A DNA stretch of 64,000 nucleotides from Thermoplasmatales archaeon (GCA_027310185.1 DAIDBH010000014.1:160001-224000); one strand, 5' to 3'; positions 2,024 to 16,947 are shown, counted from the stretch's first letter. The notes: generated by a model from the letters alone, not told the origin. Made by a program: numbers and translations.

Positions 2024-2310
2024 TTATTCACCTTTTACTTATTTGAGTTATCCCGTTAGAGGATTTTATTTATTAAACTCTTCGTACGGTAATTTATAAT
2101 AGTTATAATAGGTTTTCCAATTGCTTTCACTTTTAGTTATCACTAAATCAGTTTCACTAATCAGGTGCTGGAATATGATAACTGTGTATGTCCTATACAT
2201 GAAGAAAGTTCTCAGGTGGCTTTTGAAAATAGTACAACCTTAATAATCGAAACATTTAATTTCACTGTTATTATTTCGTAAAGTTTAAAGTACACCTTTA
2301 GAGGGATTGA

Positions 2311-2955
2311 ATGGCCGGAGAAAGATCAAATAAGAGAACAAAGGATAAGTGGAAAGAGAAAAAGTGGTACAGGATTATGGCTCCAAGTCAGCTTGGAGGT
2401 AAGGAAATAGCAATGACAGTGGGTACTGGACCCGAGGGCATAAAGGGAAGAGTAGTTGAGATTCCCATATCAGATTTTTCTGGGAACTTTAAGAAATCAA
2501 ACGCCAAGCTTGAGTTTAAGGTTTTAGACTGTGTTGGAACAAAATGCAGTACGATTTTTGTTGGTCATTCTGTTAATGACGATTATATAAGAAGAATGGT
2601 TAGAAGAAGAAAGGAGAGAATAGATATCGTAAAGGACGTGAAAACCACCGATGGTTACGAGTTCGTTCTTAAGGTTGTTGCAGTCACAGAAAACAAGCTC
2701 ACATCAGCTAAAAGTGTTGAGCTAAGGAATGCAATTACTCAACTGGTTGCTGATAAAGTTAAGAATATGGATTACTTTGAATTTGCGAGATTTATAATAG
2801 AAGACGAATCAGTATCAGAAATACTCAATGGAGTCAAAGATATATATCCACTTAAAAAACTTGAATTTAGGAAGTCAGAGCTTACAAGCACTGGGGAGAA
2901 ATACAACTTTTCAGTTCCTGAAGATGCTCCGGCAGAGGAAGTTCCAGCTCAATAA
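2311..2955 (+). CDS. rps3ae: 30S ribosomal protein S3Ae (eS1)
   Basis: KDKWKEKKWYRIMAP...DYIRRMVRRRKERID...IYPLKKLEFRKSE. Confidence 0.95.
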   Translation: MAGERSNKRTKDKWKEKKWYRIMAPSQLGGKEIAMTVGTGPEGIKGRVVEIPISDFSGNFKKSNAKLEFKVLDCVGTKCSTIFVGHSVNDDYIRRMVRRRKERIDIVKDVKTTDGYEFVLKVVAVTENKLTSAKSVELRNAITQLVADKVKNMDYFEFARFIIEDESVSEILNGVKDIYPLKKLEFRKSELTSTGEKYNFSVPEDAPAEEVPAQ

Positions 2956-2973
2956 TCTAAAACCATTTTTAGC

Positions 2974-3062
2974 GCCGGGGTGGCTTAGTAGGTGGAGCGC
3001 CGGACTCATAAGAATTTTTCTGAGAAATCCGGAGGTCTCGGGTTCGATCCCCGATCCCGGCA
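2974..3062 (+). tRNA. tRNA-Met(CAT), elongator type, with a 16-nt intron (3011-3026) at position 37/38
   Basis: Acceptor GCCGGGG/TCCCGGC-A, anticodon arm CCGGA-CTCATA^A-TCCGG, T-loop GGTTCGATCCC; bulge-helix-bulge formed by CTCA/TGAG. Confidence 0.93.
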
Positions 3063-3196
3063 TACAGTTAAAGGTTCAATGTCTCGTTAGCATTTTTTGA
3101 ATGATTCTGTTTTTAATGTCTTGGTAAGATTTGAACTTACAAAGAATGATTGGAATCATAATTGGTGAAATAGAAAACAAATATTTATCTCAATAT

Positions 3197-3820
3197 CTAT
3201 GTCCTGGATAATCTGGAAAAATTAGATTTCAAGATCTCATCTGCTGTGTCTTTTGCATTCTGTTCATTTATTCTATTCAGGTTTTCCACTACATTCCTGA
3301 TATCTTCAACTGGTCTGTTTTGACTCATTTTCCACTTTGCATATATCGCTGAAGCTTTTATTCTAAAACCCACAATTTCTTCTATCATTTTTTGATAGTA
3401 AACTTCTTTTTCCTTTTTCTGTGCTTTCCACTCTGGATCAAATTCAGCACTGAGTTCCTTTAGTAATGTTTCTGTTTGACTTCGGCTCAATAATTCGAAT
3501 ATGCCTTGGATTTTTACAGTTGCATAATCCCAGGTTGGGACTGATGACTCTACGATATACCATCTGGGTGAGATATAATGATGAGGACCAAGAAAAAGAA
3601 TTGTCACCTTCTTATTCTGAGAGACTTTCCACTGATCGTTATTCCTGGAAAGATGACCGTAAAGAACTAATGAATCTTCCTCATGCTTGATGATGAATGG
3701 AATCTGTGAATTATAAATTTCATCATTGTATGCGGTTAGTAGTATTCCAAAACTGTTGTTCTGAATGAATTTATTGATCTTCTCTTGATCTTTCTCCTCA
3801 AATTCATCTGGTATATACAC
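3197..3820 (-). CDS. FMN-binding negative transcriptional regulator (PaiB family)
   Basis: MYIP start, LYGHLSRNN, GPHHYISPRWY, VPTWDY, KWKMSQNR. Confidence 0.9.
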   Translation of the reverse strand: MYIPDEFEEKDQEKINKFIQNNSFGILLTAYNDEIYNSQIPFIIKHEEDSLVLYGHLSRNNDQWKVSQNKKVTILFLGPHHYISPRWYIVESSVPTWDYATVKIQGIFELLSRSQTETLLKELSAEFDPEWKAQKKEKEVYYQKMIEEIVGFRIKASAIYAKWKMSQNRPVEDIRNVVENLNRINEQNAKDTADEILKSNFSRLSRT

Positions 3821-3881
3821 AGTGGAACATGATGATTTGATATATTATCTTATGAATATGACTACTACTATTTATATGGAT

Positions 3882-5054
3882 TTATGAGATATATTTGCTG
3901 AAACGTTCTCTGTAATTTTTTATAGTCCTGTAAAAGAATACTAGGAGTATTGTAGCAATAAATCCCGGGAGAGTGACGTAGATCCAGAAAAGCGTGTGAC
4001 TGGAAATAATGGGCAAAAATGCCCCTCCTAGAAGTGGACCAAAGGCACGTCCAGCTGAACAGAATGCGTTATAAATTCCAATATTGGTGCCAATTTTTTC
4101 CTTTCGCGAAATGCTTGCAACTATGGAGTAACCATTTGGGAATGAAAGATTTTCCCCCATTGTAAATATTGCCGTGGAAATTAGCATCTGTATAAGGTTT
4201 GAGTCCAGCCCGTAAGATGCAAAACCTATTGTGTATATCAGTCCTCCCATAATCAACGCCTGAAATTCTCCTATTTTTCTTGAAATCCTGTAGAAAAAAG
4301 GCTGTGTGAATGCGACCAAGAGCCCATTTAGCATGTAGACTATTCCTGTCTCATAATACTGACCGGAGAATATTCCGTCTGAATATAGTGACAGGGATAT
4401 TGTTTCCTGGGCCTGGACCATAAATATCAGGAGCGCTGAAACAGATATGACTATGAGGGCCAGGTTGCTGGTGTTGAACTTCAGATGTTTTTCCTCGATA
4501 GTTACTGGTATGTTCTTCACTCTTAGGGAGATTAAAAACGAAATCATGGCGGTTACAGTGAAAAAATAGAAGATGCCAGGAAATCCAAAGTATGATAGTA
4601 TGAATCCTCCCATAGCAGGACCGAACCCCCATCCAAGATTGTTTCCTACCCTCATTATGGAGAATCCCTTCAGCTGGACATTGCTTGACCTGGAAACAAG
4701 AGCGTTTGAAGATGGGGACTGAAAGCCGTTAAGTATCATTATAGCTCCGAAACTCAGTGAAAAGAGAATTGGCGAGCCATTGATTTCCTTGCTTACTGCA
4801 AGAATAAGACTCATTAGAAAGACCCCCGATAGGAATAGAGTGAAGACTCTTTTGTGCCCGATCCGGTCACCAATCCTTCCGCCACCATACTGGGCAAATG
4901 AGGAAATAATCCCTCCAGACATGAATACGAGGGCCGCAAAGAAGGTTGAAAGGCCAAGAAATTTGGTCATGTAAATAGAACTGTAAATCCATACAGAAGA
5001 GTATCCAAGGCCCCTTATTGCAGAGGAAACAGTCACTATTTTCACATTGTCCAT
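3882..5054 (-). CDS. MFS transporter
   Basis: About 12 hydrophobic segments; motif A GGRIGDRIGHK. Confidence 0.9.
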   Translation of the reverse strand: MDNVKIVTVSSAIRGLGYSSVWIYSSIYMTKFLGLSTFFAALVFMSGGIISSFAQYGGGRIGDRIGHKRVFTLFLSGVFLMSLILAVSKEINGSPILFSLSFGAIMILNGFQSPSSNALVSRSSNVQLKGFSIMRVGNNLGWGFGPAMGGFILSYFGFPGIFYFFTVTAMISFLISLRVKNIPVTIEEKHLKFNTSNLALIVISVSALLIFMVQAQETISLSLYSDGIFSGQYYETGIVYMLNGLLVAFTQPFFYRISRKIGEFQALIMGGLIYTIGFASYGLDSNLIQMLISTAIFTMGENLSFPNGYSIVASISRKEKIGTNIGIYNAFCSAGRAFGPLLGGAFLPIISSHTLFWIYVTLPGFIATILLVFFYRTIKNYRERFSKYIS

Positions 5055-5170
5055 TGAGGAGGAGACGTTGAAATTGTCTATTTAGAAATATTCTCTAATT
5101 TTTCAGACATTACTCCTAAAGATTAACACTTTTAAAAAAATTATAAGATATTGTAGTGGAAAATTCCGGT

Positions 5171-5608
5171 TTACTTTATTGACGAAAAGACTGAGATTGT
5201 TTCCGTTCTTTCAACTCCTGCTACAGACCTGAGTTTATCAAGAACAAAGTCACCGATTTCTTCGATGCTTTTTCCTCTCACTTTGATAATTAAATCCCAC
5301 TGTCCGGCCACAATGCTTACTTCGTAAACCTGTGGGAAATTCCCTATGATTCTTGCCATTTCCCTCTGCTGTACATTTGCCTTAGGATCAAAGGATACAA
5401 AGACATAAGCCATTGCACCCAGTCCAATCTGTGAATAATCGGGAATTGCAGTAAACCCTTTTATTACTCCCTGGGAGATCATGTTCTGCATCCTTTCATA
5501 AATGGTAATTCTTGGAATATCCAGATTTCTTGAAATGTCTGCAATTTTGTCCCTCCCCTTTTCTATCAGGTATTCCAGTATTATCCTATCCTTGTCATCC
5601 ATTAGCAC
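5171..5608 (-). CDS. Lrp/AsnC family transcriptional regulator
   Basis: MDDKDRIIL HTH, GVIKGFTAIPD, VAGQWDLIIKV, GVERTET. Confidence 0.93.
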   Translation of the reverse strand: MLMDDKDRIILEYLIEKGRDKIADISRNLDIPRITIYERMQNMISQGVIKGFTAIPDYSQIGLGAMAYVFVSFDPKANVQQREMARIIGNFPQVYEVSIVAGQWDLIIKVRGKSIEEIGDFVLDKLRSVAGVERTETISVFSSIK

Positions 5609-5732
5609 TGTATAGTTTTTTACTATTTAAGATTTTAAAACGTCTGATAAAATTTGTAATTAATTTCAAATGACTACAAAATGTCTAAAATATGCAACGA
5701 AATGTTATATTAAGATACATAATTACCATATC

Positions 5733-6665
5733 ATGCAGGAAATTGTAACTACTGAACTGAGAGAACATCTCAGGGGAGAGAAGTTAAAGATAGCCCTTGA
5801 AGTGAACACGGTAATTAGGAGAAAAATGTCAGATATTCTGGTTGACCATGGATTCCTTGAGATTCCACCAGTAATATTCTCATCTGTAACAGACCCACTG
5901 AACCATCCGGTTTATGATCCAACATTCGAATATGAGGGATCAAGATATTCACTTACAAAAAGCATGATCTTCCATAAGCAGATGATTGTGCAGGAAATAC
6001 CTAAAATATATACATTTTCACCAAATGTGAGACTTGAGACCGCAGATAAGGCGAAGAGCGGCAGACACCTGCTTGAGTTCACCCAGCTTGATCTGGAAAT
6101 GCTTAACGCATCAAGGGAGGATGCAATGAAGCTTGGGGAAGAGCTCATAAAAGGTGCCATAGAGGAAGTAGTGAAGAAGCTTCCTGATGAATTGAAAGCT
6201 CTGAACAGAAAACTGAGAATTCCAGAGACTCCGTTTAAGACGTACAGGTATACCGAAGCAAAGGAGAAATATGGTGATGACTTTGAACAGAAATTGTCAG
6301 AGAAAGAAAGTGACCCATTCTGGATAATAGATATTCCACTGAAGGAAAGAGAGTTCTATGACAGGGAGAAGGATGATGAAAAGGGAATTCTCAGGGACAT
6401 GGACCTGATGTATCCGGAGGGATTCAATGAGGCTATTTCAGGTGGAGAAAGGGAATATGAGATCGAGAGGATAAAGGAAAGAATACTGGCCAAGGGACAG
6501 ACCTTTGAGCAATTCAAGTGGTTCCTTGATTATGCTGAGGAGGGTCTGCAGCTTTCATCAGGGTTCGGGATAGGAATTGAGAGACTGGTAAGGTATATAT
6601 GTGGATTCAAGCGTATTGAGGATGTGCATCCATTTCCAAAAACACCGGGTAAATTTTCTATCTGA
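5733..6665 (+). CDS. asnA: Archaeal asparagine synthetase A (AspRS/AsnRS catalytic-domain paralog)
   Basis: TDPL, LTKSMIFHKQ, SPNVRLE, GRHLLEFTQLDLE, ISGGEREYE, GFGIGIERLVRYICG; no anticodon-binding domain; start at MQEIV. Confidence 0.9.
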   Translation: MQEIVTTELREHLRGEKLKIALEVNTVIRRKMSDILVDHGFLEIPPVIFSSVTDPLNHPVYDPTFEYEGSRYSLTKSMIFHKQMIVQEIPKIYTFSPNVRLETADKAKSGRHLLEFTQLDLEMLNASREDAMKLGEELIKGAIEEVVKKLPDELKALNRKLRIPETPFKTYRYTEAKEKYGDDFEQKLSEKESDPFWIIDIPLKEREFYDREKDDEKGILRDMDLMYPEGFNEAISGGEREYEIERIKERILAKGQTFEQFKWFLDYAEEGLQLSSGFGIGIERLVRYICGFKRIEDVHPFPKTPGKFSI

Positions 6666-6714
6666 ATCCAATCCGCCACAGGTTCAATTTTTCTTAATTT
6701 TTAAAAATTAGGAC

Positions 6715-8502
6715 TCAGGACTGGAGGGAGTAGGTTATTGCCCTTCCTGATTTCATTGCCTTTTCCAGGTTGATTCCAGCCTCACTATCAACCTTTATTC
6801 GTATTATTCCCTTGCTGGAAGTTCTTCCCTGTATTGCCATTACCTCGTCAATATATATGTTCACAAGGCTGTTTTTCTCGTTGCAGTGCAGATAGATTAT
6901 CCTGTTCTTCACCTCCACAGCAACGCTTCTCCTTTTCCTGTCTTCCTCGGAAACTACATCGATGGATACTCCAAGACTCTTTTCAAGCTCACTTATATTT
7001 GATCCTTTTCTTCCAAGCAATTTTGGGCGCAGGGACTCCGGGATCGTGACCCTGTACTTCCTTCTTCCTTTTGGTGACACCTCAACCTGGTCGTATCCAA
7101 GATATTCTGAAATCGTTGACCTGACCATTTCTGTTTTTGCCTCATCTATCTGTGATGTGCCTTCACTTTCATCTATGGGAACTACAACTATCTGCTCCCC
7201 GAATGAATAAATCTCATAGAGTTCCTGCCTGGTTAAGGCATCCTTTACCTGGATCACGGGCCTGGAGAGATCTTCCTGAACCATTCCGAAAGGTACCTTA
7301 ACAGTGTGTGAAATGGACAGGTATTTTGAAATCCTTCCATCCCTTACAAACAGGATCGTATCTATAACCTGTGGTATAAGTCCAAGTTCTATACGGCCGA
7401 TAAACCTGTGCAATGCATCCACTGGCTTTGTTGCATGAACTACACCGATCATTCCAACTCCAGCCATTCGAAGATCTGAGAATACCTTGAAATCTGAAGT
7501 GACCCTCATCTCATCGAAAACGGTATAATCGTTCCTCACGAGAAGCAATATATTTCCTGTCTGTTCCATAGATCCTTCAAGAGATGTATACTGTGTGATC
7601 TCCTTGTTCACCTGAAGGTCCCTTGGTTTTTCCATGGTTTTAACTATCATCCCCTGATCGTTTAGATGATCAGCCAGTGCCTGGACAAATGTACTTTTAC
7701 CTGCTCCAGGGCTACCTGCAACAAGAATGCCTGCCGACCCAGAGGTAATGTGATTCATGATTTCGTCTGGAAGTTCGTAATACGCTAGTTCTTTCTTGAT
7801 TACCGGCCTTACTGCTGTTATTTCTGCAGTGCTGGAAAATGGTGGCCTTGCAATCACGATTCTGTAAACATTCAGTTGAAGTACCGTGGCTCCAGCCATA
7901 TCCATTTCAACAAAGGAATCCTTCTCATTTCCGGCTCTCTTGATCAGGTTGTTTATAAGCGCATCCACCTCTGAACTTTTTAGGAAATGCCCGGTACGCA
8001 CTGTTTCAACCTTTCCCGGGACCCCTTTCTTTACTTTCACATATGTATCCGCCTTTATGTGAACTGAGATGGTATCACTGTCAAAAAACTCTTCCAGTTT
8101 CACGGATATCTTGTCATCAGGTTCCAGATACTGGCACTGGATGCCCTTGAGAACCGCTATGTTCTTCTGAACAATATCACCGGTAACAAGAATTCCATTG
8201 AGATCCATTGCCTCTGATCGAATTATCTCATCTATTTCTCCGTTGTGCCCATTTACTTTCTGCCACTGAGTGGGACGCTTGCCGAAAAATTCAATAATTA
8301 TCCCCTTCTTTTCACATATTTCCTTGACCTTCTTCAATTCATCAAGTGCAGCAAATCCTATGGACCTGCTCTGATTCGCCTGGTGCTCAACTTCTGCAAT
8401 AAGCGCTTCACTTATAATGATCCTGGAATCACTCTTTATCTTTGCAATGTATTTTGTAAATCTTCCATCTACTATGACAGATGTGTCTGGGATATAATCC
8501 AC
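6715..8502 (-). CDS. PIN-domain/ATPase/KH protein (PINA-type Holliday-junction branch-migration ATPase)
   Basis: N-terminal PIN (PDTSVIVDG), Walker A GSPGAGKST, DYTVFDEMR, KH motif LLGRKGSNISELEKSLG. Confidence 0.88.
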   Translation of the reverse strand: MDYIPDTSVIVDGRFTKYIAKIKSDSRIIISEALIAEVEHQANQSRSIGFAALDELKKVKEICEKKGIIIEFFGKRPTQWQKVNGHNGEIDEIIRSEAMDLNGILVTGDIVQKNIAVLKGIQCQYLEPDDKISVKLEEFFDSDTISVHIKADTYVKVKKGVPGKVETVRTGHFLKSSEVDALINNLIKRAGNEKDSFVEMDMAGATVLQLNVYRIVIARPPFSSTAEITAVRPVIKKELAYYELPDEIMNHITSGSAGILVAGSPGAGKSTFVQALADHLNDQGMIVKTMEKPRDLQVNKEITQYTSLEGSMEQTGNILLLVRNDYTVFDEMRVTSDFKVFSDLRMAGVGMIGVVHATKPVDALHRFIGRIELGLIPQVIDTILFVRDGRISKYLSISHTVKVPFGMVQEDLSRPVIQVKDALTRQELYEIYSFGEQIVVVPIDESEGTSQIDEAKTEMVRSTISEYLGYDQVEVSPKGRRKYRVTIPESLRPKLLGRKGSNISELEKSLGVSIDVVSEEDRKRRSVAVEVKNRIIYLHCNEKNSLVNIYIDEVMAIQGRTSSKGIIRIKVDSEAGINLEKAMKSGRAITYSLQS

Positions 8503-8528
8503 ATATGGTTAATCCTTAAGATTATTTA

Positions 8529-9263
8529 TTGGTTATGATATCGGATTTCATGGGGTCAGAAAATTTATCTCTTCACCTAATCACTATGCTGAAGGAACAG
8601 GAAGAATTAATAGATGACTCTGCTTTCGCTCTTTCCGGTGGAATTGACAGCTCCCTTTTGTATTCAGTTCTTGGGAAGGGCAGGCATGCTTACTGTGCTG
8701 GCACAGAAGGGTCCCTAGATTTTATCTACGCAGAGGAATTATGCAGGATATCAGGGACAACCCTTTCAAGAATAAATGTTGAAGAGGATGATGTTCTGGA
8801 GTTCACAAATATCGTGAAAAGCATTGATCCTGGGATATCATTTCTGGACCTTGGATTTGAGACTGTTCTGGCAATTGTTCTGTCAAGAATAAATGAAGAT
8901 GCACTCGTTACAGGTCAGGGTGCAGATGAAATCTTTTACGGATACAGGAAATTTTCGGATGGCAGGGAGGAAGATAATAAAAGGAGTCTTGACAAACTAT
9001 TCAGATTAACACTTCCAAGAGAGAGCAAGATTGCGGAATATTTTGGGAAGAAACTCATCACCCCTTACCTGGAAAATGGCATTCCTGAATATTTCAGCAA
9101 GATGGATCGTGGGGTTCACCTTGATGAGGTAAATAATAAATTAATACTGAGGGAAGCGGGCAGGATTTCTGGACTCCCGGATTCCATATACCTCAGAGGA
9201 AAGAAAGCGGCACAGTATGGAACAGGCATCAAGAAGGTTCAGGAAAGACTCGGATTGAAATAA
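8529..9263 (+). CDS. Stand-alone asparagine synthase C-terminal (adenine nucleotide alpha hydrolase) domain protein
   Basis: PP-loop ALSGGIDSS, TGQGADEIFYGY, NKLILRE, KKAAQYGTG; no glutaminase domain. Confidence 0.82.
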   Translation: MVMISDFMGSENLSLHLITMLKEQEELIDDSAFALSGGIDSSLLYSVLGKGRHAYCAGTEGSLDFIYAEELCRISGTTLSRINVEEDDVLEFTNIVKSIDPGISFLDLGFETVLAIVLSRINEDALVTGQGADEIFYGYRKFSDGREEDNKRSLDKLFRLTLPRESKIAEYFGKKLITPYLENGIPEYFSKMDRGVHLDEVNNKLILREAGRISGLPDSIYLRGKKAAQYGTGIKKVQERLGLK

Positions 9264-9269
9264 GGGTGA

Positions 9270-10427
9270 ATGAAGCTGTATAAGTTGAGTGGAAGGAATA
9301 GCATTATTCTGCTTCTAGGTCTCAGGGCACTGTACTCGATGAACTGGTACAATGTATCCCCGATGCTATTCAATATAACCACAACCTATGGTGTCAGTTC
9401 CTCACTTTCTGGCCTTATTCTTTCTGCATTTCTCATAGGTACAGGTCTCTTCCAGATTCCATCAGGACTTGTAGCCTCAAAAATAGGCTCAAAAAACACA
9501 GCCCTGACAGGAATGGCAATCATGTCCATAGCTGCCACAACGTCCCTTGTTTCTCCTGATTTCACAATTTTCCTGGTAACAAGATTCGTTGTAGGCCTGG
9601 GATCTGCATTCTTCTTTTCATCCGGTATAGCCGTTCTCAATGATATCGATGAAAGAAATGTAAGCAGGAATATTGCAGCATTCAACACGGCGTTTTCCAT
9701 TGGAGGAGGTTTCGGCGTGGTCGGATTTGCATACTTCCTACAGTTTACCTCCTGGCAGAACCTCCTTGCAGCTGGAGGTATTATAACACTTGTTCTCACC
9801 ATAGTCTCATTCGTACTTATCCCGGATATGAGTGCAAAGAGCGATAAAAAGAAGGAATTCGGGAGGAACGTATATCGGAGGCTCACATCGAGGCCATTAC
9901 TGCTTCTTTCAATGTCCCTTGCGGGCTACTGGGGATTGAATTTTACATTTGAAGAATACCTGCAGCCCTTCGCAGAGAAACTTGGTTTCAGTGGACCAGT
10001 CTCAGGATTCATAGGATCATTGTCCCTATTTGCAGGTATTCTTGGAATGCTGCTCTTCGCCTATTTTTCAAGCAAGAAGGCATCTGTTGTACTCCCTTCA
10101 CTTGTCATATTTATCTCAGCAATACTGGCCCTTCAATTCTTCGGGCTGTCATACTACCTGTTCCTTACGGCAATACTTGGTGGAAGCATAAGCGTAATAA
10201 TATTTTCACTTGAATATTCCTATGTCGTGAAGTTAGAAACGGAAAGGCAGTTTGTGGCCCTTGGAATATCAATTATGAATGCACTTCAAATTGCAACCGG
10301 GTCTGCCATTACATTCCTGTTCGGCTACCTGTTCTCGGTGAACGCAGATCTTTCCTGGATAATTCTTGGAATAATCGCCCTGGTCTTCCTTCCAATGGGA
10401 TTTTCTGTCATGAAGCAGAGAGGTTAA
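9270..10427 (+). CDS. MFS transporter
   Basis: Multiple TM helices; QIPSGLVASKIGSK motif A variant. Confidence 0.87.
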   Translation: MKLYKLSGRNSIILLLGLRALYSMNWYNVSPMLFNITTTYGVSSSLSGLILSAFLIGTGLFQIPSGLVASKIGSKNTALTGMAIMSIAATTSLVSPDFTIFLVTRFVVGLGSAFFFSSGIAVLNDIDERNVSRNIAAFNTAFSIGGGFGVVGFAYFLQFTSWQNLLAAGGIITLVLTIVSFVLIPDMSAKSDKKKEFGRNVYRRLTSRPLLLLSMSLAGYWGLNFTFEEYLQPFAEKLGFSGPVSGFIGSLSLFAGILGMLLFAYFSSKKASVVLPSLVIFISAILALQFFGLSYYLFLTAILGGSISVIIFSLEYSYVVKLETERQFVALGISIMNALQIATGSAITFLFGYLFSVNADLSWIILGIIALVFLPMGFSVMKQRG

Positions 10428-11656
10428 TTATTGTGCTCCCTCATGTTAACTTTCTTCCACAGTGGTATGAATGACAGGAAGAAAATTGTACCTATTATGG
10501 TGAAAGGATACCATATCAGGCCAAGATCAGCTGAGAATATGGTGAGGAAGAATGTCCCCAGCACAGGTGCAATTGGTGTAACCATTCCTGAAAGTACCTG
10601 AAATGATGTGAAATACTGCCCCCTTTTATTAACAGGTGCAATCCTGCTTATGACTGTATTGATTGATGGTGAAACAATATTTTCACCCATAGTTATCAGA
10701 ATTGTGTCCAGTACCAGGAAGGTGAATCCCCTGAAGAAAGGCAGTAAGGAGAATGAAAAGAGATACACAATATAGCCAAGATTGATCCTGGTGATATCTT
10801 CCATCTTCTTCAGCAGCCTGTTTATGGGAAGCTGGCCTAAAGTCACAACAACCCCGTTAACAGAATAGAGCAAGCCTATGTCAAAATCCGTCATGCTGTC
10901 AAATCCCTTCCAGAAGAATGTGAGTGTTGTTCCCCATTGACCTAAAATCAGGTAAAATAATGAAATCAGAATGGCAACTATGAAGAATGGCCTGTCCTTG
11001 AAAGCCTTGAAGATATCCGGTTTCATGTTCACTGAGTCTTCCTTTTCATTCTCCCTTTTTATCTGCTGCTTTTTCAGGAATTTTGCATAGATAAACAGTT
11101 CCGAGAATGAGAAAACGGTCGTTAGGAGGAATATATAGCCATAGCCTATTCCTGCGATGAAACCTCCAATGGCTGGACCCAGTGAAAACCCAAGATTCTG
11201 AAGTATTCTGACAATACTGAACGCTGAGTTTCTCTCTGATACTGTTGAATTGTCTGAAACAATTACATTATCTGCGGCGCCAATTATGTTCATAAGCGGC
11301 TCGCTCAGGATGAGTACGAGATAGATCAGATAGAGGTTGCTGTTTTCAAAGATCAGCAATGTCAGGGAAAGAAGGAGGAGACCAAGAAATATATTTGATA
11401 TGATGATTACAGATCTGGCACCTCTCTTATCGATGAGACCGCCTGCCACCAGTGTTAAAGGAAGTGAGGATATTGCCATTAGAAATACTACAAAACCGAT
11501 GATGAGGTAAGGGACATGCCTTATTACAAGAAGGTAGAGAGGCAGGAAAATCCACATTTGCGATCTGGCAAATACTCTTATGAACTGGTTTGAGGCTACA
11601 ACGGCAATACCGTTCCTCCTGAAAATACTTATAGTTTGGTTACCTGATTGTTCCAA
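10424..11656 (-). CDS. MFS transporter
   Basis: GGLIDKRGAR motif A; NLGFSLGPAIGG; about 12 TM; TTG start uncertain. Confidence 0.87.
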   Translation of the reverse strand: MEQSGNQTISIFRRNGIAVVASNQFIRVFARSQMWIFLPLYLLVIRHVPYLIIGFVVFLMAISSLPLTLVAGGLIDKRGARSVIIISNIFLGLLLLSLTLLIFENSNLYLIYLVLILSEPLMNIIGAADNVIVSDNSTVSERNSAFSIVRILQNLGFSLGPAIGGFIAGIGYGYIFLLTTVFSFSELFIYAKFLKKQQIKRENEKEDSVNMKPDIFKAFKDRPFFIVAILISLFYLILGQWGTTLTFFWKGFDSMTDFDIGLLYSVNGVVVTLGQLPINRLLKKMEDITRINLGYIVYLFSFSLLPFFRGFTFLVLDTILITMGENIVSPSINTVISRIAPVNKRGQYFTSFQVLSGMVTPIAPVLGTFFLTIFSADLGLIWYPFTIIGTIFFLSFIPLWKKVNMREHNN

Positions 11657-11728
11657 GCGATTCAGAGCCTCATATCAGTGAAGCATATAAGCCTGATTTC
11701 AAAGTTAGAACGTAGTAATAAGTTAATT

Positions 11729-11749
11729 CTGTTTCGTGACTTTACATCT
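11729..11749. repeat. Target-site duplication copy 1 (CTGTTT) plus terminal inverted repeat
   Basis: ctgttt|cgtgactttacatct. Confidence 0.9.
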
Positions 11750-11819
11750 ATTTTAATTTTGTAGACTTCCCAATATGATTTTCAGGCTGTTTTTCTAAAC
11801 CACTATTGTGGGTGCACTA

Positions 11820-12221
11820 CTATTTCAATACCTGATCAAGTTTCATGATCATTCCAATCTTCCTTCCCGTTTCTGACTTGAAATCCAATCTCTCGCTCAC
11901 CTTTTTTCCCCTGGCAGCATATACAACCATTATATCTTTCATAACATCAACTGTTGATGGAAGAGATACGCTCTTCTCTGTCCTGTGCATTTCATTATAT
12001 ATCAGTGAAAGGAAAAGATAGGCAAGAAGAGACATAAACATGTGAACCCTAATCTTCTGTGGAGTTCTGTGATATACTGGAAATGCAATGCCCATGCTGT
12101 TTATTGTGCGGAAGCAGTGTTCCACCCTGTTTCTTTTCTTGTAGAGATCAATTATCCCAGCAGGATCCATATCCATGATGTTTGTGAATATGGCATTCTT
12201 TCCCATCATGGATAAACGTTC
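11820..12221 (-). pseudogene. IS1634-family DDE transposase, C-terminal fragment
   Basis: GKNAIFTN...IIDLYKKRNRVEHCFRTI...PVYHRTPQKIRVHMFMSLLAY (Y-x2-R-x3-E-x2-FR signature); N-terminal/central part missing. Confidence 0.85.
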
Positions 12222-12515
12222 GAAGAGATCCAAAAAGCCTATTTCAGGATGAAGACTGATAATCCATCACTTTACAAATTCCTGGAACGAGCGACGGACG
12301 ACCTCAAGCAAAACCCTTTCTGTGGTATTCAGATGCCAAAACGGCAAATACCGAAAACCTACGTGAGCAAATATGAGGTCAACAACCTGTGGAAATACAA
12401 CTTACCCAACGCCTGAAGGTTAGTTTATTCAGTTGCCGGGAGCGAAGTGGAAATAATTGCAATTCTGCTGGAGTGGTTTCCTCACAAGGAATATGAGAAG
12501 AGATTCAATTATTGA
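12222..12515 (+). pseudogene. RelE/ParE-like toxin pseudogene (5'-truncated, in-frame TGA at 12414-12416)
   Basis: Manual translation EEIQKAYFRMKTDNPSLYKFLERATDDLKQNPFCGIQMPKRQIPKTYVSKYEVNNLWKYNLPNA*RLVYSVAGSEVEIIAILLEWFPHKEYEKRFNY*. Confidence 0.65.
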
Positions 12516-12753
12516 AATTTGATGACGATTCTCTGGATTAACCACAGTCTAAATTGATTTTACAAAAATAAACGTGATATACTTTGAGATTGTTTTTCCA
12601 AAGGCGACGCTAACGTTTCCGAGGTACAGATAGTACCCACTTAATTGATTAAGGGAATAATTAACTTTAGGGTTCAGGTCTATCCTTCTTATGTGAAAAT
12701 GATGTTTCATTCACTAAATTAGCACTTTGATTGACACTGATTAACCTCACTTT

Positions 12754-13060
12754 TTACAACTTCCAGGATGTGAGTGAAAGTCCCAACGCAATAATTACGC
12801 TGACTCCCGAAACTAATGGCAGCATTGATAGGGAAAAGTAGCCGAATAGACTTCCGCCCAAAACGATTCCCAGAGCTATACCTATGTACAACATTGAGTT
12901 GTTAATAGCAAGGGCAGTTTGATGAGAATTTTTCGGCGAAAAATAGACCACCCTTCGTAACTGGGAAGGCATAAAGCCCAAAAGCAATCCATAGTGGAAG
13001 GGGTACACTTTCTATGAGCAAATACACGCCAAGTAGAATACCATAAACCGAAAACACGGG
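12754..13060 (-). pseudogene. C-terminal fragment of an MFS (DHA1-like) transporter, frameshifted
   Basis: PSQLRRVV...ALAINNSMLYIGIALGIVLGG resembles MFS TM10-12; upstream hydrophobic stretch lies in another frame. Confidence 0.6.
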
Positions 13061-13061
13061 A

Positions 13062-13415
13062 TCACGAACGCAATTGGCGTGTCATAGAATCTTTGCTTCT
13101 CATTAAAATGAGATATTTCATGTGGGTAAACGAAGCTAATAGAATCAGAGGAAAATAGGAAGCAATAAAAACCCATTGAGCTTGCTCTACTGAAGGCACG
13201 TAAACCGTCTCCAAGAGTACATGTCTGAAAATATAGAGCTCAAGCACGGTGACTATTGTAGCTACAACCATAATTGAAAGAGTCATTTTTTCGTAAAACG
13301 CTGCCCTAATAGGAACCGAAGTACGAAAATATCTGAAAGCGAGGCAAAAAGCCGCTCCTCCCTCGATTGCGAGAAGTAAAATCCAAAAATAAAGAAGTTG
13401 GATAATAATTGTCAC
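13062..13415 (-). CDS. Small 3-TM membrane protein (candidate immunity protein)
   Basis: Hydrophobic ORF directly behind the stop of 13420..14550; probable GTG start at 13415 (ORF track extends to 13451). Confidence 0.6.
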   Translation of the reverse strand: MTIIIQLLYFWILLLAIEGGAAFCLAFRYFRTSVPIRAAFYEKMTLSIMVVATIVTVLELYIFRHVLLETVYVPSVEQAQWVFIASYFPLILLASFTHMKYLILMRSKDSMTRQLRS

Positions 13416-13419
13416 CTTC

Positions 13420-14550
13420 TTAACTAAACCAAACCCAGTTTCCGCTACCATAATCGCTTACAAACTGATTATTAACGCTGGAAACCTCAGCACTGAAAGT
13501 GACTCCCATGATACCCCCATAGGCTACAAATGGTACGTTATACCAAAAAGTATAAGAGTTTCCATTGGAGTTCAAACCATATAGACCAACAGATGATGCA
13601 AACGTACCTACAAGTGTAATCCATGGATAAAAGTAATCATTAACGAAATCCAGATGGATATAAGAAAAGCCAGTGCTTTCATAGTAGCTAAGCATTGTTG
13701 AAGCCTCATACAATAATCCCACGCCTACAATTATCAGAGCAGCTCCAATTGCTTGTGCCAAGACCGGAACCGGTATGAAAAGTGCGACCAGCCCTGCAGC
13801 AGCCAATCCATATCCAGCGTATGTAGTTGTACTTTCCCAATTATTGAAAAACGATTGAGCAGCAGAACCTGTAAATTCCACATTGTAGTTATCATTTTCA
13901 CCATACGTTAGAGACCATCCCCCAAGGTACCACGGGGCGTGATAAACATAATAATTAATGTTGACCCATACCCACGGGTCTATCACGCTACCAGTAGGCG
14001 TAGTAACGTTCACTGCCCATACTTCATACTGGGTTCCATTAAAGTTCGCTTCGTATAACACGCTATGGTCATGAAATGTTCCCTGAGAAGTGACAGTAGA
14101 AGTATTTATTTCGTTAATCGGTGTTCCAGAATAAACAACCTGCTCCTTTAACTGCAAGGATTGCTGGGCACTTTGAGCATTTGAATAGTTATTTTGTTCC
14201 TCACTGGTAAGAATCTGAAGATACATTTCCGCCGTCTGATTTTGACTTACAAATTCTTGAAACAATGCGATTGATGCATTCGTGTTTTGAATGCCTTGTG
14301 CTTGTCCATTAGACTGCAACCAATTTAAAAACAGAGTGGCTATCGAATTTTCTGTTCCACTCTGATTTTGTGTAGTAAATGTGGCAGCTTCAAAGTTAGG
14401 CGAATATCCGTTAACAACATGAGAATTGGAAGTTTGAACCAAATCTGAATTGCTTGTAACAGGAGAGAACCACAAAGCAGAAAGAGCAACCACTACAATC
14501 AGAGAAATAGATATTATAAGTTTTCCTCGGAGGCCATTTTTTAAGTTCAT
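13420..14550 (-). CDS. Secreted protein with C-terminal hydrophobic hairpin (candidate archaeocin/toxin precursor)
   Basis: Basic n-region MNLKNGLRGK plus h-region; N/Q/S/T-rich N-half with 7 N-glycosylation sequons; hairpin GLAAAGLVALFIPVPVLAQAIGAALIIVGVGLLY; function inferred. Confidence 0.7.
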   Translation of the reverse strand: MNLKNGLRGKLIISISLIVVVALSALWFSPVTSNSDLVQTSNSHVVNGYSPNFEAATFTTQNQSGTENSIATLFLNWLQSNGQAQGIQNTNASIALFQEFVSQNQTAEMYLQILTSEEQNNYSNAQSAQQSLQLKEQVVYSGTPINEINTSTVTSQGTFHDHSVLYEANFNGTQYEVWAVNVTTPTGSVIDPWVWVNINYYVYHAPWYLGGWSLTYGENDNYNVEFTGSAAQSFFNNWESTTTYAGYGLAAAGLVALFIPVPVLAQAIGAALIIVGVGLLYEASTMLSYYESTGFSYIHLDFVNDYFYPWITLVGTFASSVGLYGLNSNGNSYTFWYNVPFVAYGGIMGVTFSAEVSSVNNQFVSDYGSGNWVWFS

Positions 14551-14817
14551 AAATTATTATCACAATACAACGTATATAGTTATGGATACGTTATGAAGCG
14601 TTCCAGCCTGGGAGAGTTCGGTGTCATACAATGCAACACCAAAAAATAATAGATATTTATTTCGTTTATGGCGTTTTCCTTTTCTTTTTGCCTACTTTTT
14701 CGGGAAAAATTATGGTCGAAGAAATCCGCTAATCTGCATTAATCAAAAATGCGGGTCTCTGAGAATCCCCTTTCTTGGTGAAACTTCTTTCTAAGAAGTT
14801 TGAACAAGAAATAGAAA

Positions 14818-15210
14818 TTAACTATTATGAGAAGGATGATTTAAATATGCTAACCTAACTGCGATTAAAACTACTATAATCAGGAACGCTTGAAGTATCA
14901 CAACTGCAACTATATCTGTGAAGCCTCTTAGATAAAGATATAGTTCTATCTCTGATAACATTATAAAGAGTAAAGTTAGTAACGAGGTGATATTAACAAA
15001 ACTTGAGAAACCATATCCATGTTTTTTACCACCGAAATAACCCAGACTATTCATAAACAAAAGCAAGAAAAGCCCAATCAGTAAAAAGAATAGAACAATG
15101 CTTTCCAAATTTAAGTTCTTAAATATGGTGAATAATACCGATAGTAATGAAATACTTGCGAGAGCCTCTGATATTGTGTAAAATTTATTAAAGAATTTAG
15201 CATTTTTCAA
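14818..15210 (-). CDS. Small 4-TM membrane protein (candidate immunity protein)
   Basis: Four hydrophobic segments; TTG start 10 nt after the upstream stop, with AGGTGG RBS. Confidence 0.65.
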   Translation of the reverse strand: MKNAKFFNKFYTISEALASISLLSVLFTIFKNLNLESIVLFFLLIGLFLLLFMNSLGYFGGKKHGYGFSSFVNITSLLTLLFIMLSEIELYLYLRGFTDIVAVVILQAFLIIVVLIAVRLAYLNHPSHNS

Positions 15211-15220
15211 GTAAGACCAC

Positions 15221-15691
15221 CTAACAATCCTGCGTTAGTAGAATGGCCTCTGCTATTGGCAGAATATTGATAATCGCATACAGAGCAATACACCCAAATA
15301 TGTCTCCAGAAAAACAAGCGACTGCAGCAGCAACAAGACCTATGCCTGTGACGCCTAATGATGCAATTTCTGCGAGGCAAGCAGCCAAGTTTCCATCAAT
15401 AAGGTATACCCCTGTCATAACTACTTTTTGTTTCAGAATGTGGTCTGGTGTAATTTTTATAAAAGAAGTCAACGATTGCGCTGTAAGTAGATAATAGATG
15501 CCAAGGGTTGTTAATGTTTTATTTCCACTTTCTAGATATTTCATGGATAGTGAATATATACCGGACTGTATGCTTAGAAGCTGCCCATACAAGTCGGAAC
15601 TGAAATTGGTGATGAGTACGTCCCCTAAATGTAAATCTCTCCCTTGATTTGGTTGAAAGGCAATTGCCATCACAGATAATAGTGCACCCAC
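15221..15691 (-). CDS. Probably 5'-truncated secreted precursor with Cys-stapled hydrophobic C-terminal hairpin (bacteriocin/halocin-like)
   Basis: C105-x20-C126-x7-C134-x21-C156(C-terminus); residual hydrophobic N-terminus (FVS)VGALLSVMAIAF without a basic n-region. Confidence 0.6.
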   Translation of the reverse strand: MGALLSVMAIAFQPNQGRDLHLGDVLITNFSSDLYGQLLSIQSGIYSLSMKYLESGNKTLTTLGIYYLLTAQSLTSFIKITPDHILKQKVVMTGVYLIDGNLAACLAEIASLGVTGIGLVAAAVACFSGDIFGCIALYAIINILPIAEAILLTQDC

Positions 15692-15806
15692 ACTAACAAA
15701 CTCTTCTCTCTAAATACATTGTGTACATATGAAAATACTGTGTACCCACAGACAGATTTACAGAAAATAGCTAAATTGCGTGTTCCATGATATACTAATA
15801 AAAAGA

Positions 15807-15827
15807 AGATGTAAAGTCACGCTGTTT
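15807..15827. repeat. Terminal inverted repeat plus target-site duplication copy 2 (CTGTTT)
   Basis: agatgtaaagtcacg|ctgttt. Confidence 0.9.
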
Positions 15828-15834
15828 TCTTAAA

Positions 15835-16947
15835 TTATCTGATTTCCTTTATGGTATTTGGAGGTAGATATGCACATGATGGATCTGATTCAAGGAAATT
15901 GCCTGTTTCTACATATGCCCTTGCCCTTGATCCTCCACACACTCCATTGAACTCACATGATGCACATTTCCCCATAAGCCGCCCCGTATCACTGATCTCT
16001 TTTAGAACATGGCTCGCCCTTATGATGTCCTTCAGGTTCTGTTCCCTGACATTTCCAATGGACAGGTTGAAGAGGCCTGATACTGAGACTTCACCGGTAG
16101 AAGAAACGAAGAGTGTCCTGATTCTTCTTCTGGGATTGTACTGCTCCGGAATTTCCAGATCGAATATATCAATGCCAGTGAGCTTCCTGGTTTCCACTGC
16201 CAGGGCATTGAGAAGCGTTCCACCTTCCATGTATCCCTTTCGTATGGTCTCGATCTCTATCCTGCTTATTTCAGGCGCCTCTACAGTTCTTATGGAACAG
16301 CCTGCTACCTTCAACATGTACAGGTATTTGAGCACATCTTCCATTTCCTGTGATGAAATTGGTTCCTCTGAAATGCCTCTTCCTGTCTTTATCAGGAAGA
16401 ACAGTTCCCATATGTTTATGCCAAGTTCCCTCAGGGTATGAAAGATGAATGGCAGGTCCATTATATTTCTCTCCATTACAGTGGTATTTATCTGTGTCTT
16501 GATCCCCTCTGATTTGATCAGGCTTGCCAGTTCTACAGTTTTCTTGAACGAACCCCTCCTGTTCCTTATATGGTCGTGAGTTGACGGAATACCATCAAGA
16601 GAAAGAGATATGGAACTTACACCGTATTCCTCCATCTGGAATATCTGATCCACTGTCATAAAGTCTCCAGCTGAGGGGCTCACGGAAAAACTCAATCGCA
16701 GTCTGGATGCATCCAGCAGGATGCTTGCGAAATCCGGATGAAGCAATGGGTTACCACCTGTAAAGATGATGTGTGGTATTCGATCCATTGAGGAAGAGAG
16801 GTTTTCCAGCAATTTCCTGATTTCATAACCTTTCATCTCTTCCGGACTGACTTCAGTGATGGAAGAGGCCCTGCAATGTACACAACTATAATCGCACGCT
16901 TTTGTTAATTCAATAAACAGTAAGTCCGGTGAATACTCTCTTTCCAT
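15835..16947 (-). CDS. Radical SAM/SPASM domain protein (TIGR04053/NirJ-Ahb-like)
   Basis: ELTKACDYSCVHCRA, FTGGNPL, C-terminal GKCASCEFNGVCGGSRARAY...DPSC. Confidence 0.88.
   Translation of the reverse strand: MEREYSPDLLFIELTKACDYSCVHCRASSITEVSPEEMKGYEIRKLLENLSSSMDRIPHIIFTGGNPLLHPDFASILLDASRLRLSFSVSPSAGDFMTVDQIFQMEEYGVSSISLSLDGIPSTHDHIRNRRGSFKKTVELASLIKSEGIKTQINTTVMERNIMDLPFIFHTLRELGINIWELFFLIKTGRGISEEPISSQEMEDVLKYLYMLKVAGCSIRTVEAPEISRIEIETIRKGYMEGGTLLNALAVETRKLTGIDIFDLEIPEQYNPRRRIRTLFVSSTGEVSVSGLFNLSIGNVREQNLKDIIRASHVLKEISDTGRLMGKCASCEFNGVCGGSRARAYVETGNFLESDPSCAYLPPNTIKEIR

Follow-up and report, generated by a model that had tools for sequence, protein, structure and literature searches.

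Here we describe a 4087-bp unit in the genome of a Thermoplasmatales archaeon that is a non-autonomous, cargo-carrying derivative of a 1760-bp insertion sequence (IS) of the IS1634 family. It is mobile-insertion-cassette-like, a kind of element that is already known, yet rarely described from archaea. The unit occupies positions 11735-15821 of the window, by which we mean the whole 64,000-nucleotide stretch of DNA that was analysed. What remains of the parent is its first 487 bp and its last 143 bp, and the middle consists of 3457 bp of unrelated DNA that has taken the place of IS positions about 488-1617, including transposase codons 1-370. The transposase has therefore lost its N-terminal 370 residues and keeps the last 133 of its 503 codons. 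The original prediction, made from the window alone, that the transposase centre had been replaced by about 3.5 kb of foreign cargo was borne out, as the cargo has no other copy in its own genome.

Ends, parent element and insertion site

The landmarks of the unit and its two host flanks are as follows.

10424..11656, minus strand: flanking MFS transporter gene, host, intact (Pfam MFS_1 6.7e-48; syntenic neighbour of the radical SAM gene in relatives)
11729..11734, no strand: left copy of the CTGTTT target-site duplication (direct reading; the spacer length in genome G012 fits a single copy)
11735..11749, plus strand: left terminal inverted repeat, CGTGACTTTACATCT, shared with intact IS copies of sister species
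11735..12221, minus strand: left arm, the parent's first 487 bp with the transposase's last 133 codons (90% identity to positions 1-487 of the IS in G013:C19; 98-99% to the copies in G014)
15679..15821, minus strand: right arm, the parent's last 143 bp, the leader upstream of the transposase gene (97% identity to the copies in G014 over 15729-15821)
15807..15821, minus strand: right terminal inverted repeat (direct reading)
15822..15827, no strand: right copy of the CTGTTT duplication (direct reading)
15835..16947, minus strand: flanking radical SAM/SPASM gene (rSAM), host, intact (Pfam Radical_SAM 8.3e-21, SPASM 2.5e-4; synteny)

Both the perfect 15-bp terminal inverted repeat, with CGTGACTTTACATCT on the left and its exact reverse complement on the right, and the exact 6-bp direct repeat can be read directly, as the original prediction had stated. 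The inverted repeat by itself is not beyond chance, since the window holds one perfect 15-nt inverted pair no more than 6 kb apart, against a mean of 0.8 and a maximum of 5 in 50 mononucleotide shuffles. That the element is real is decided by the adjacent 6-nt direct repeat, by the homology of both arms to an intact IS of sister species, and by the uninterrupted site in relatives.

The prediction had pointed to an intact parent ending in the same sequence, and such copies were found in sister species, their ends identical to those of the unit. The copy in G013:C19 is 1760 bp long, shares the 15-bp ends and is flanked by a 5-bp duplication; its 503-aa transposase scores 213 bits on the NCBIfam profile NF033559 (IS1634; cut-off 100). 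Among 169 genomes of the order there are 10 convergent pairs of these ends on one contig: eight span 1570-1762 bp, and only two span 4087 bp, the present unit and its copy in the conspecific genome G011. At the eight intact copies checked, the duplication is 5 bp in four, 6 bp in one and absent or imperfect in two, and the remaining one abuts the end of its contig. One more 5-bp repeat was seen besides. The idea that a 6-bp duplication is the sign of another transposase was ruled out, as an IS-sized copy in G099:C15 also has 6 bp. In the available text of PMC2266710, the IS1634 family is characterised by lengths of 1500-2000 bp, ends of the form C-----YT and AT-rich target duplications of 5-6 bp. 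The parent copies, at 1570-1762 bp, fall within this length range, and the 4087-bp unit falls outside it because it is a derivative; its ends read CGTGACTT, in agreement with the family's form, and its 6-bp CTGTTT is a duplication of the family's kind.

Sister genomes also hold damaged copies of the IS, among them a 920-bp copy in G014:C3, in which positions 1-577 are joined to 1401-1753, and solo ends of 83 bp. The end pattern occurs at 12 places in G014, most of them within about 140 bp of contig ends. An IS-derived unit on G014:C3 ends in a second, solo right end, and a 3970-bp unit flanked by TTGATC is found on that contig. The conspecific contig G011:C5 carries a related IS with an open 502-codon frame and ends matching at 14 of 15 and 13 of 15 positions.

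Just inside the left end, the transposase remnant is part of an open frame at 11820-12233 that is IS-derived up to 12221, and its identification as the 3' part of an IS1634-type transposase proved correct. It matches NF033559 at 5.4e-22 over profile positions 356-466 of 483 (its 78.5 bits lie below the cut-off of 100 because it is a fragment), it aligns over 132 aa with residues 371-502 of the parent's 503-aa protein at 87.9% identity, and it matches the C-terminal end of Pfam DDE_Tnp_1 at 1.2e-7.

The host is an acid-loving, Cuniculiplasma-like archaeon of the order Thermoplasmatales. In five of the six relatives examined (G012, G015, G007, G010 and G005) the MFS and rSAM genes are neighbours, about 88-121 bp apart. 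The spacer of the sister species G012 measures 37 nt between conserved anchors, precisely the length that the window predicts with one copy of the duplication, where 31 would be predicted with none and 43 with two. An empty site in relatives had been foreseen, and the uninterrupted spacer and its exact length for a single copy agree with it; its letters do not, as G012 reads CAATTT rather than CTGTTT, in flanks that are about 85% identical. Among the contigs of four metagenome runs from four studies, none joins 11734 to 15822, which would be the empty-site allele, although short contigs cannot prove absence. A single metagenome contig spans the whole stretch, with the unit at the same MFS-rSAM site; loose contig ends show only that the communities of the four runs contain both intact IS copies and native cargo loci.

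The cargo and its two junctions

The cargo is a patchwork in which at least four blocks can be told apart. In each relative their homologues are spread over different contigs, and three of the cargo genes are cut.

12222..12515, plus strand: block A, fragment of a RelE/ParE/YoeB-like toxin gene (87.6% identity over 97 aa to a 109-aa gene in G005:C84)
12649..12979, minus strand: block B, 3'-terminal fragment of an MFS transporter gene (open frame 12754-13008; Pfam MFS_1 5e-5, below cut-off)
13062..13451, minus strand: block C, first gene, predicted membrane protein of 129 aa, no family (74.6% identity, residues 1-122, to G005:C19)
13420..14550, minus strand: block C, second gene, 376 aa with hydrophobic N- and C-terminal stretches, no family (open frame)
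14818..15210, minus strand: block D, first gene, hydrophobic protein of 130 aa, apparently complete (130-aa homologues at 59-71% identity)
15221..15691, minus strand: block D, second gene, C-terminal half (from about residue 157) of the gene for a 310-aa protein, fused to the IS leader (homologues)

Blocks A and B lie on contigs other than those of C and D in every relative, and C and D are less than 1 kb apart in G013:C20, in an orientation relative to each other that is opposite to that in the unit. The toxin fragment of block A lacks its first 12 codons, has an in-frame TGA at 12414-12416 and reaches only 0.002-0.009 on Pfam ParE/YoeB, below the cut-offs. Block B has DNA matches in G016:C34, in G003:C10 (ending at 12979) and in G015:C45 (ending at 12978), and a metagenome contig shows the native gene running on beyond 12979. 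That block B is a copy of the MFS gene next to the unit was ruled out, as tblastn gave no other match in its own genome. The 129-, 376- and 130-aa frames have full-length homologues elsewhere, and the remaining three cargo genes are truncated. The 376-aa protein has three paralogues on contig C1 of its own genome at 27-35% identity, and an Atlas search with it returned nothing usable (scores of at most 0.81, TM below 0.3). Homologues of the 130-aa protein adjoin the 310-aa gene in G013:C20, G014:C2 and G003:C3. Searches with the 129-, 376-, 130-, 156- and 310-aa proteins gave nothing above the cut-offs of NCBIfam or of Pfam, including a re-scan up to E = 5, and a profile search with the 310-aa family collected 10 proteins in all, none distant and all annotated as hypothetical. 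The cargo had been thought to carry candidate antagonism genes, and this claim was not supported: it goes back to one sub-threshold language-model lead, which hints only weakly at such a role.

Genes are cut mid-gene at both junctions, as predicted at about 12221 and about 15699. The left position stood, as the junction is clean and falls exactly between 12221 and 12222; the right one is to be moved to between 15678 and 15679. The right arm lacks about 33 bp after 15738 that are present in intact copies, and metagenome copies of the IS carry 23-34 extra letters there. Within this arm, MYTMYLERRV had been taken for the start of the transposase; it belongs to a separate leader frame of 11 codons (MYTMYLERRVC and a stop; 15728-15693, minus strand), which is in a different reading frame from the transposase and is also found in the intact IS. 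The right crossover falls in TAT beside TGATGGCA, 8 bases that are common to the IS and the donor gene and include the transposase ATG. Through this microhomology the true transposase start (ATG, MA-FAYKR...) was replaced by an internal Met of the truncated gene for the 310-aa membrane protein, whose Met-Ala (ATG at 15670-15668) now occupies the former place of the transposase ATG. Cargo DNA stops at 15678, and the first codons of the fused frame (GTG at 15691, MGALL) are IS-derived. Since the truncated gene and the 130-aa gene behind it now stand directly behind the IS leader, the two may be read from the former transposase promoter, as a by-product of the right junction.

Origin and probable movement of the unit

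Neither the cargo DNA nor five of the six cargo protein frames has another match in its own genome, which is 99.5% complete, and blastn found no further copy there of the arms or of the whole unit. Using the 137-aa fragment and the 503-aa parent, tblastn found no such transposase in the same assembly, the sole match being a 21%-identical IS4-like frame at C1:167101-168240; any movement of the unit therefore needed a transposase in trans, as the original prediction had presumed. An end-like 15-mer with one mismatch at C18:231430 was rejected as an IS end, its surroundings being without IS homology. A 24-mer across the left junction has one match in genome contigs, at the same site in the conspecific G011, and none in metagenome contigs; a 26-mer across the right junction has none in metagenome contigs, the 30-mer of the left end has none in viral contigs, and the whole unit has no match among plasmids or phages in distant mode. 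In these searches neither chimeric junction was found at a second locus, so the unit is known from one site only, the G011 copy being from the same site and the same species. A recent arrival of the unit is indicated by its arms, which are 97-99% identical to the copies in G014, compared with the MFS-gene region beside the site, which is only 67% identical in that genome.

The explanation that we rate best overall, at somewhat under an even chance, is that the chimera formed elsewhere from one IS copy and was then transposed in one piece. It would have arisen in a different Cuniculiplasma-like genome, one with the IS as well as the cargo loci, where the middle of one IS copy would have been replaced by illegitimate recombination, for example during the interrupted repair of an excision gap with template switching, and the right join would have been guided by the 8-base patch TGATGGCA. 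The whole unit would then have transposed into the MFS-rSAM spacer with a transposase acting in trans, and would now be stranded there, as its own genome is without such a transposase. The cargo could come from a plasmid or virus since lost from the present lineage, and the donor may already have held the patchwork as a degraded island, in which case it was not assembled in the course of capture. Taking all readings together, sequence comparison makes it moderately probable that the 4087-bp unit moved as one piece, which is favoured by the foreignness of the cargo to its own genome. The original prediction had gone further and read a single event from the intact duplication. Insertion between the MFS and rSAM genes with a 6-bp duplication stands; a single event is not implied, because an intact IS that landed first and was gutted later leaves an identical duplication. 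Such a course, in which the intact IS made CTGTTT, its middle was swapped on site for incoming foreign DNA through two illegitimate joins and the unit never moved, is a serious though rather unlikely alternative. It predicts the duplication and the empty site just as well, it suits a unit for which one site is known, damage of this sort is tolerated in an IS, which is a neutral place, and internally deleted or truncated copies do exist in sister genomes (the 920-bp copy and the 83-bp solo ends). However, no intact IS copy remains in the assembly, and because the cargo blocks have no source in their own genome, this course requires a second foreign import and two illegitimate joins within 1.1 kb of IS.

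It is less probable still that the unit is a decayed composite transposon, in which a donor island lay between two IS copies of the same orientation, two deletions took the inner IS parts and some of the island, and the outer ends moved the rest. The IS is multi-copy in some sister genomes, as the 12 places in G014 attest, the IS-derived unit on G014:C3 ends in a second, solo right end, and blocks C and D are neighbours in G013:C20, so that some of the cargo may be a single natural stretch. Blocks A and B, however, lie apart from them in every relative, the cargo contains no internal IS end or other IS remnant, two independent deletions would be required, and the right junction lies in a microhomology that takes in the transposase ATG, as one would sooner expect of a guided join than of a random deletion. 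That there is no mobile element at all, and that a variable region is bounded by an inverted repeat through chance, has next to no probability. The number of 15-nt pairs is close to the shuffle expectation, but this reading is refuted by the 487-bp and 143-bp arms, whose homology is to a defined IS that carries identical ends in many genomes, and by an empty site whose length fits exactly; the exact 6-bp duplication also speaks against it. A more far-reaching proposal, which we consider quite doubtful, is that IS1634-family ISs of archaea, moving by cut and paste, repeatedly give rise to Pack-type elements through template switching in interrupted gap repair, the 3970-bp unit of G014:C3 being a second independent product, and that the cassette carries an expressed antagonism/immunity module. 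This module would comprise the C-terminal, cysteine-bearing half of a candidate halocin-C8-like precursor and a small membrane partner, placed under the transposase promoter by the microhomology at the transposase ATG, and would aid persistence and spread among acid-mine Thermoplasmatales.

Meaning and comparison with known systems

With the parent IS, the empty site and both junctions resolved, the unit shows that an archaeal IS1634-family element is able to become a transposase-less carrier of foreign DNA. Its right junction illustrates that a truncated foreign gene can come to lie behind an IS promoter through a few bases shared around a start codon. Such carriers are one possible route for gene pieces and small gene pairs between co-existing acid-mine Thermoplasmatales, for which IS-rich genomic islands are on record in the available text of PMC5155288.

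The unit resembles internally deleted IS copies and MITEs, of which the 920-bp copy on G014:C3 is an example from the same IS, in deriving from an autonomous IS that lost its centre. Those elements, however, are free of foreign DNA and do not reach the parent's length, whereas the present unit is 2.3 times as long as its parent. Transporter ISs, in the available text of PMC3129680, carry passenger genes together with their own transposase. In these and in composite transposons, as is proposed here, IS ends move non-IS genes, whereas the present unit has no complete IS copies at its ends, no inner ends and no transposase gene, its arms being 487 and 143 bp of one IS. The Pack-MULEs of plants are non-autonomous elements with the Mutator-type ends of an autonomous family and an interior of host gene fragments, amplified to many copies. 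Common to both are the patchwork of fragments from several loci, the microhomology at a junction and possible chimeric transcripts; the transposase superfamily and the domain of life are different, the present unit has IS1634-family ends and sits at one site, and three of its cargo frames look complete. The label Pack-like in the original prediction is thus a fair description of the gene-piece patchwork, as an analogy only, and the documented prokaryotic counterpart is the mobile insertion cassette.

A limited full-text literature search, judged on titles and the starts of abstracts and with subscription journals mostly outside it, found no description of an archaeal mobile insertion cassette. 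The best comparison is MIC231 of Bacillus cereus, which derives from IS231 of the IS4 family (Chen 1999 and De Palmenaer 2004, via the available text of PMC6199540 and PMC3129680) and whose mobilisation in trans was shown experimentally according to the same two texts, whereas the present unit is known at one site only. The present unit also differs in its parent, an archaeal IS1634-family element; in its length of 4.09 kb, above the range of 0.7-3 kb quoted in one of those texts, a review; in a cargo of which half is gene fragments rather than whole passenger genes; and in retaining a recognisable third of the transposase gene. As the prokaryotic mobile insertion cassette concept already covers the unit, no new category is opened. 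As these sources describe such cassettes, the two share a pair of IS inverted repeats with unrelated coding sequence between them and no working transposase gene, together with sub-terminal IS sequence retained beyond the repeats and, presumably for the present unit, a need for the cognate transposase in trans.

Ends of the unit and its landing site

The unit opens with CGTGACTTTACATCT at 11735-11749 and closes with the exact reverse complement at 15807-15821; CTGTTT abuts both ends (11729-11734 and 15822-15827), leaving 4087 bp between. Read directly in the window, the perfect 15-bp terminal inverted repeats and the 6-bp target-site duplication named in the original prediction thus lie exactly where it placed them. 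The inverted pair alone is not beyond chance, with one perfect 15-nt pair within 6 kb in the window against a mean of 0.8 in 50 shuffles, and the case for an element is made instead by the adjacent direct repeat and, above all, by homology. The G+C content of the unit is 38.2%, against 41-42% in the flanks.

By tblastn, the MFS and radical-SAM genes that enclose the unit are adjacent, set about 88-121 bp apart, in five of the six relatives (genomes G012, G015, G007, G010 and G005), while in the sixth, G003, they are separated by an unrelated 7.46 kb. This intergenic spacer may be a place where insertions recur. The insert of G003 (locus L075, G003:C79:23000-33500, at 1506-8966) holds several frames of 130-446 aa. 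In G012, whose flanks are about 85% identical to the window as DNA and whose flanking proteins are 95% and 91% identical, two conserved anchors stand 37 nt apart, where the window predicts 37 with one copy of the duplication, 31 with none and 43 with two. The empty site expected in relatives was therefore found with a length that fits one copy exactly, but its hexamer is CAATTT and not CTGTTT, a change to be expected at that divergence of the flanks. The anchor distance and the synteny lend good support to a transpositional insertion at this point. One mine-tailings run holds a contig that joins 11370, in the MFS gene, to 11904, in the left arm, on opposite strands, and a second contig passes from dissimilar sequence into the stretch at 11601; both suggest that this community contains a rearranged version of the locus.

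Parent element and junctions

Features of the unit (window coordinates)
11735-12221: left arm (487 bp), equal to positions 1-487 of the intact insertion sequence (IS) of the sister species G013, 90% identity
11820-12233, minus strand: transposase remnant, IS-derived up to 12221
12222-12515: block A, fragment of a 109-aa RelE/ParE/YoeB-like gene, without its first 12 codons and with an internal TGA at 12414
12649-12979: block B, 3' end of an MFS gene not related to the flanking one
Block C: frames of 129 and 376 aa, also neighbours in G005:C19, with a shorter version of the larger gene
Block D: 130-aa frame and truncated 310-aa gene, adjacent also in G013:C20, G014:C2 and G003:C3
15679-15821: right arm (143 bp), last part of the IS, aligned to the copy in G013 at 75% identity and with a gap of about 33 bp
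15728-15693: short frame MYTMYLERRVC, closed by a stop

The parent IS was found intact on contig C19 of G013 (locus L022, 2048-3807) as a 1760-bp element whose ends are identical to the unit's 15-bp repeats, flanked by a 5-bp duplication, GTGTA, and carrying a single frame of 503 aa that scores 213 bits on NCBIfam NF033559, the IS1634 family transposase model (cut-off 100). The remnant in the left arm corresponds to residues 371-502 of this transposase at 87.9% identity; the first 370 residues are gone, and the unit is therefore unable to move itself. In a second sister species, G014, IS copies share 98-99% identity with the left arm and 97% with the right arm, whereas its MFS-gene region next to the site matches the window at only 67% identity, so the IS lineage has moved between species recently. 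Active multi-copy insertion sequences are usually broken at contig ends, and the G014 copies mostly are. With at most one mismatch, the end pattern occurs in 10 of the 17 genomes of the genus (reversed control, no match) and in 40 of the 169 of the order, and among the ten convergent pairs that share a contig in these 169 genomes, eight are spaced 1570-1762 bp and the two at 4087 bp are the unit and its copy in the conspecific genome G011. The IS1634 family is described in PMC2266710 as 1500-2000 bp long, with ends C-----YT and duplications of 5-6 bp; the parent fits these features, as do the ends and the duplication of the unit. The Cuniculiplasma genome paper places IS1634-family elements in genomic islands and, in the part available, mentions no such derivative (PMC5155288).

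About 33 bp of leader that the unit lacks at 15738 are present in the G013 copy and in metagenome IS copies, where they sit between a putative promoter region and the transposase start. Elsewhere in G014, locus L023 (G014:C3:16500-25000) holds at 2228-6209 what may be a second unit of cargo size from this IS, 3970 bp long and bounded on both sides by TTGATC, which directly adjoins a left end with 2 mismatches (2234) and a degenerate right end of 83 bp (6127-6203). Its interior comprises a 920-bp internally deleted IS, with positions 1-577 joined to 1401-1753 and the right repeat truncated, and two frames, of 347 and 288 aa, whose products resemble secreted proteins. In G013, the orthologous site (L069, G013:C5, 3949-4037) has the 83-bp right end and one TTGATC only.

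Comparison with the intact IS corrects the right-hand boundary. The frame MYTMYLERRV, which had been taken for the transposase start, exists, but the intact IS has an equivalent short frame, MYTMYLERRVY, which ends in a stop and is out of register with the transposase gene; the transposase start, an ATG giving MA(Y/C)FAYKRSGKNRYL, is kept between the G013 and G026 copies; the proposed start is therefore wrong. When the window is set against both the IS and the donor homologues of G013:C20 and G014:C2, the right junction falls between 15678 and 15679, not at about 15699. The join crosses in TAT, and directly beside it lies TGATGGCA, an 8-mer common to IS and donor that includes the transposase ATG, so that an internal Met-Ala of the donor, seven codons after an upstream in-frame GTG (the listed start of the frame), stands exactly where the Met-Ala of the transposase stood. 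The donor gene encodes the 310-aa protein in G013:C20, of which the window retains the C-terminal half only, from about residue 157. At the left junction, between 12221 and 12222, no microhomology was seen in the comparison. In acid-mine metagenome contigs native cargo sequence runs on at 12222, 12516, 12979, 14641 and 15678, and intact IS at 12221 and 15665, and the breakpoints are thereby confirmed independently.

Origin and possible role of the cargo

The window is C12:160001-224000 of a genome of 1.88 Mb in 19 contigs. Against this, its own genome, the 3457 bp of cargo find only one other DNA match, 75 bp at 79%, and the sole cargo protein with paralogues there is that of 376 aa, with three on contig C1 at 27-35% identity. 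These lie at C1:160370-168240 (a range that includes a distant IS4-like transposase frame), C1:259212-260168 and C1:271847-272803, and the proximity of the first to that frame suggests a variable region. The relatives carry the cargo as at least four blocks on different contigs. Homologues of one cargo protein bear the name Cuniculiplasma sp., which places the host among archaea of the Cuniculiplasma group. In G013:C20, blocks C and D lie less than 1 kb apart, in a relative orientation opposite to the unit's, so some of the mosaic may derive from a variable island that occurs naturally. The family assignment of block A is weak (Pfam E-values 0.002-0.009, below cut-offs). The match to 12649 is exactly where two independently assembled contigs start, G016:C34 and one from metagenome run X19, a hint that the native MFS locus borders a repeat at this point.

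The original prediction also saw candidate antagonism genes in the cargo. Pfam and NCBIfam searches assigned none of the four unknown cargo proteins to a family, and a language-model search with the full 310-aa homologue reached clusters named 'immunity protein/bacteriocin' and 'halocin C8 precursor-like' at 0.83-0.85, below the 0.9 above which the tool itself treats a match as more than a lead. Halocin C8 is released by cleavage from the C-terminal end of its precursor, the N-terminal part of which confers immunity. The 310-aa family, about ten proteins only, all from the Cuniculiplasma group of archaea, has four invariant cysteines in a hydrophobic C-terminal part, and the window's copy, besides having lost its N-terminal half, is two residues short in the most conserved motif. 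A putative role in antagonism stays a weak lead.

Probable movement of the unit and its place among known systems

The duplication and the empty site prove that both ends were inserted here together; they are silent on what the ends then enclosed. On balance we think that the unit probably moved as one piece. The leading account, at somewhat short of even chances, is that the centre of a single IS would have been replaced in a donor and the unit then moved here, while a composite transposon that had decayed before it moved here is quite improbable. That an intact IS landed at the site and had its centre replaced later is unlikely, though less so: every cargo block is foreign to a 99.5%-complete genome, so that the unit, if formed from DNA of its own cell, must have arisen elsewhere, and that genome has no remaining intact copy of the IS. 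Replacement in place is favoured by the unit being known at a single site only (G011 and one spanning metagenome contig), and the absence of both chimeric junction words from the metagenome collection counts against movement as a unit. Each of 20 runs, from seven studies, contains 74% or more of the words sampled from the stretch; the allele is therefore widespread in such habitats, and some of these runs may be the source of this DNA.

The own genome and G011 are near-identical over 19 kb, from 3.2 kb outside the left edge of the window up to 15840 (genome C12, about 156758-175840), with 22 differences in the tract and none within 10023-15840; outside it they diverge by about 1.5%, and the right-hand step begins 14 nt past the duplication, at 15841. 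This step reflects either a recombination tract that ended at a presence/absence difference or a switch of strains in the assembly at a repeated IS end.

Searches of the own genome found no further copy of the IS or its ends, and no related transposase beyond the IS4-like frame on C1, at 21% identity. Another contig of G011 carries a different IS1634-family element (L062, G011:C5:8582-12670, at 1094-2832), 1739 bp long, with an open frame of 502 codons and ends that match at 14 and 13 of 15 positions; it is absent from the own assembly and is conceivable as a helper for the unit.

Among known systems, Pack-MULEs are likewise patchworks of gene pieces, and to that extent the Pack-like label proposed earlier is apt, but they differ from the unit in copy number and in transposase family. 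Identification as a composite transposon, or as an IS with passenger genes, was rejected. Mobile insertion cassettes, as defined in PMC6199540 and PMC3129680, consist of two IS repeats with no transposase gene and at least one coding sequence between them, and are moved by the cognate transposase in trans. Apart from movement, which is only predicted for it, the unit has all the features of that definition, and the mobile insertion cassette is the closest known kind.
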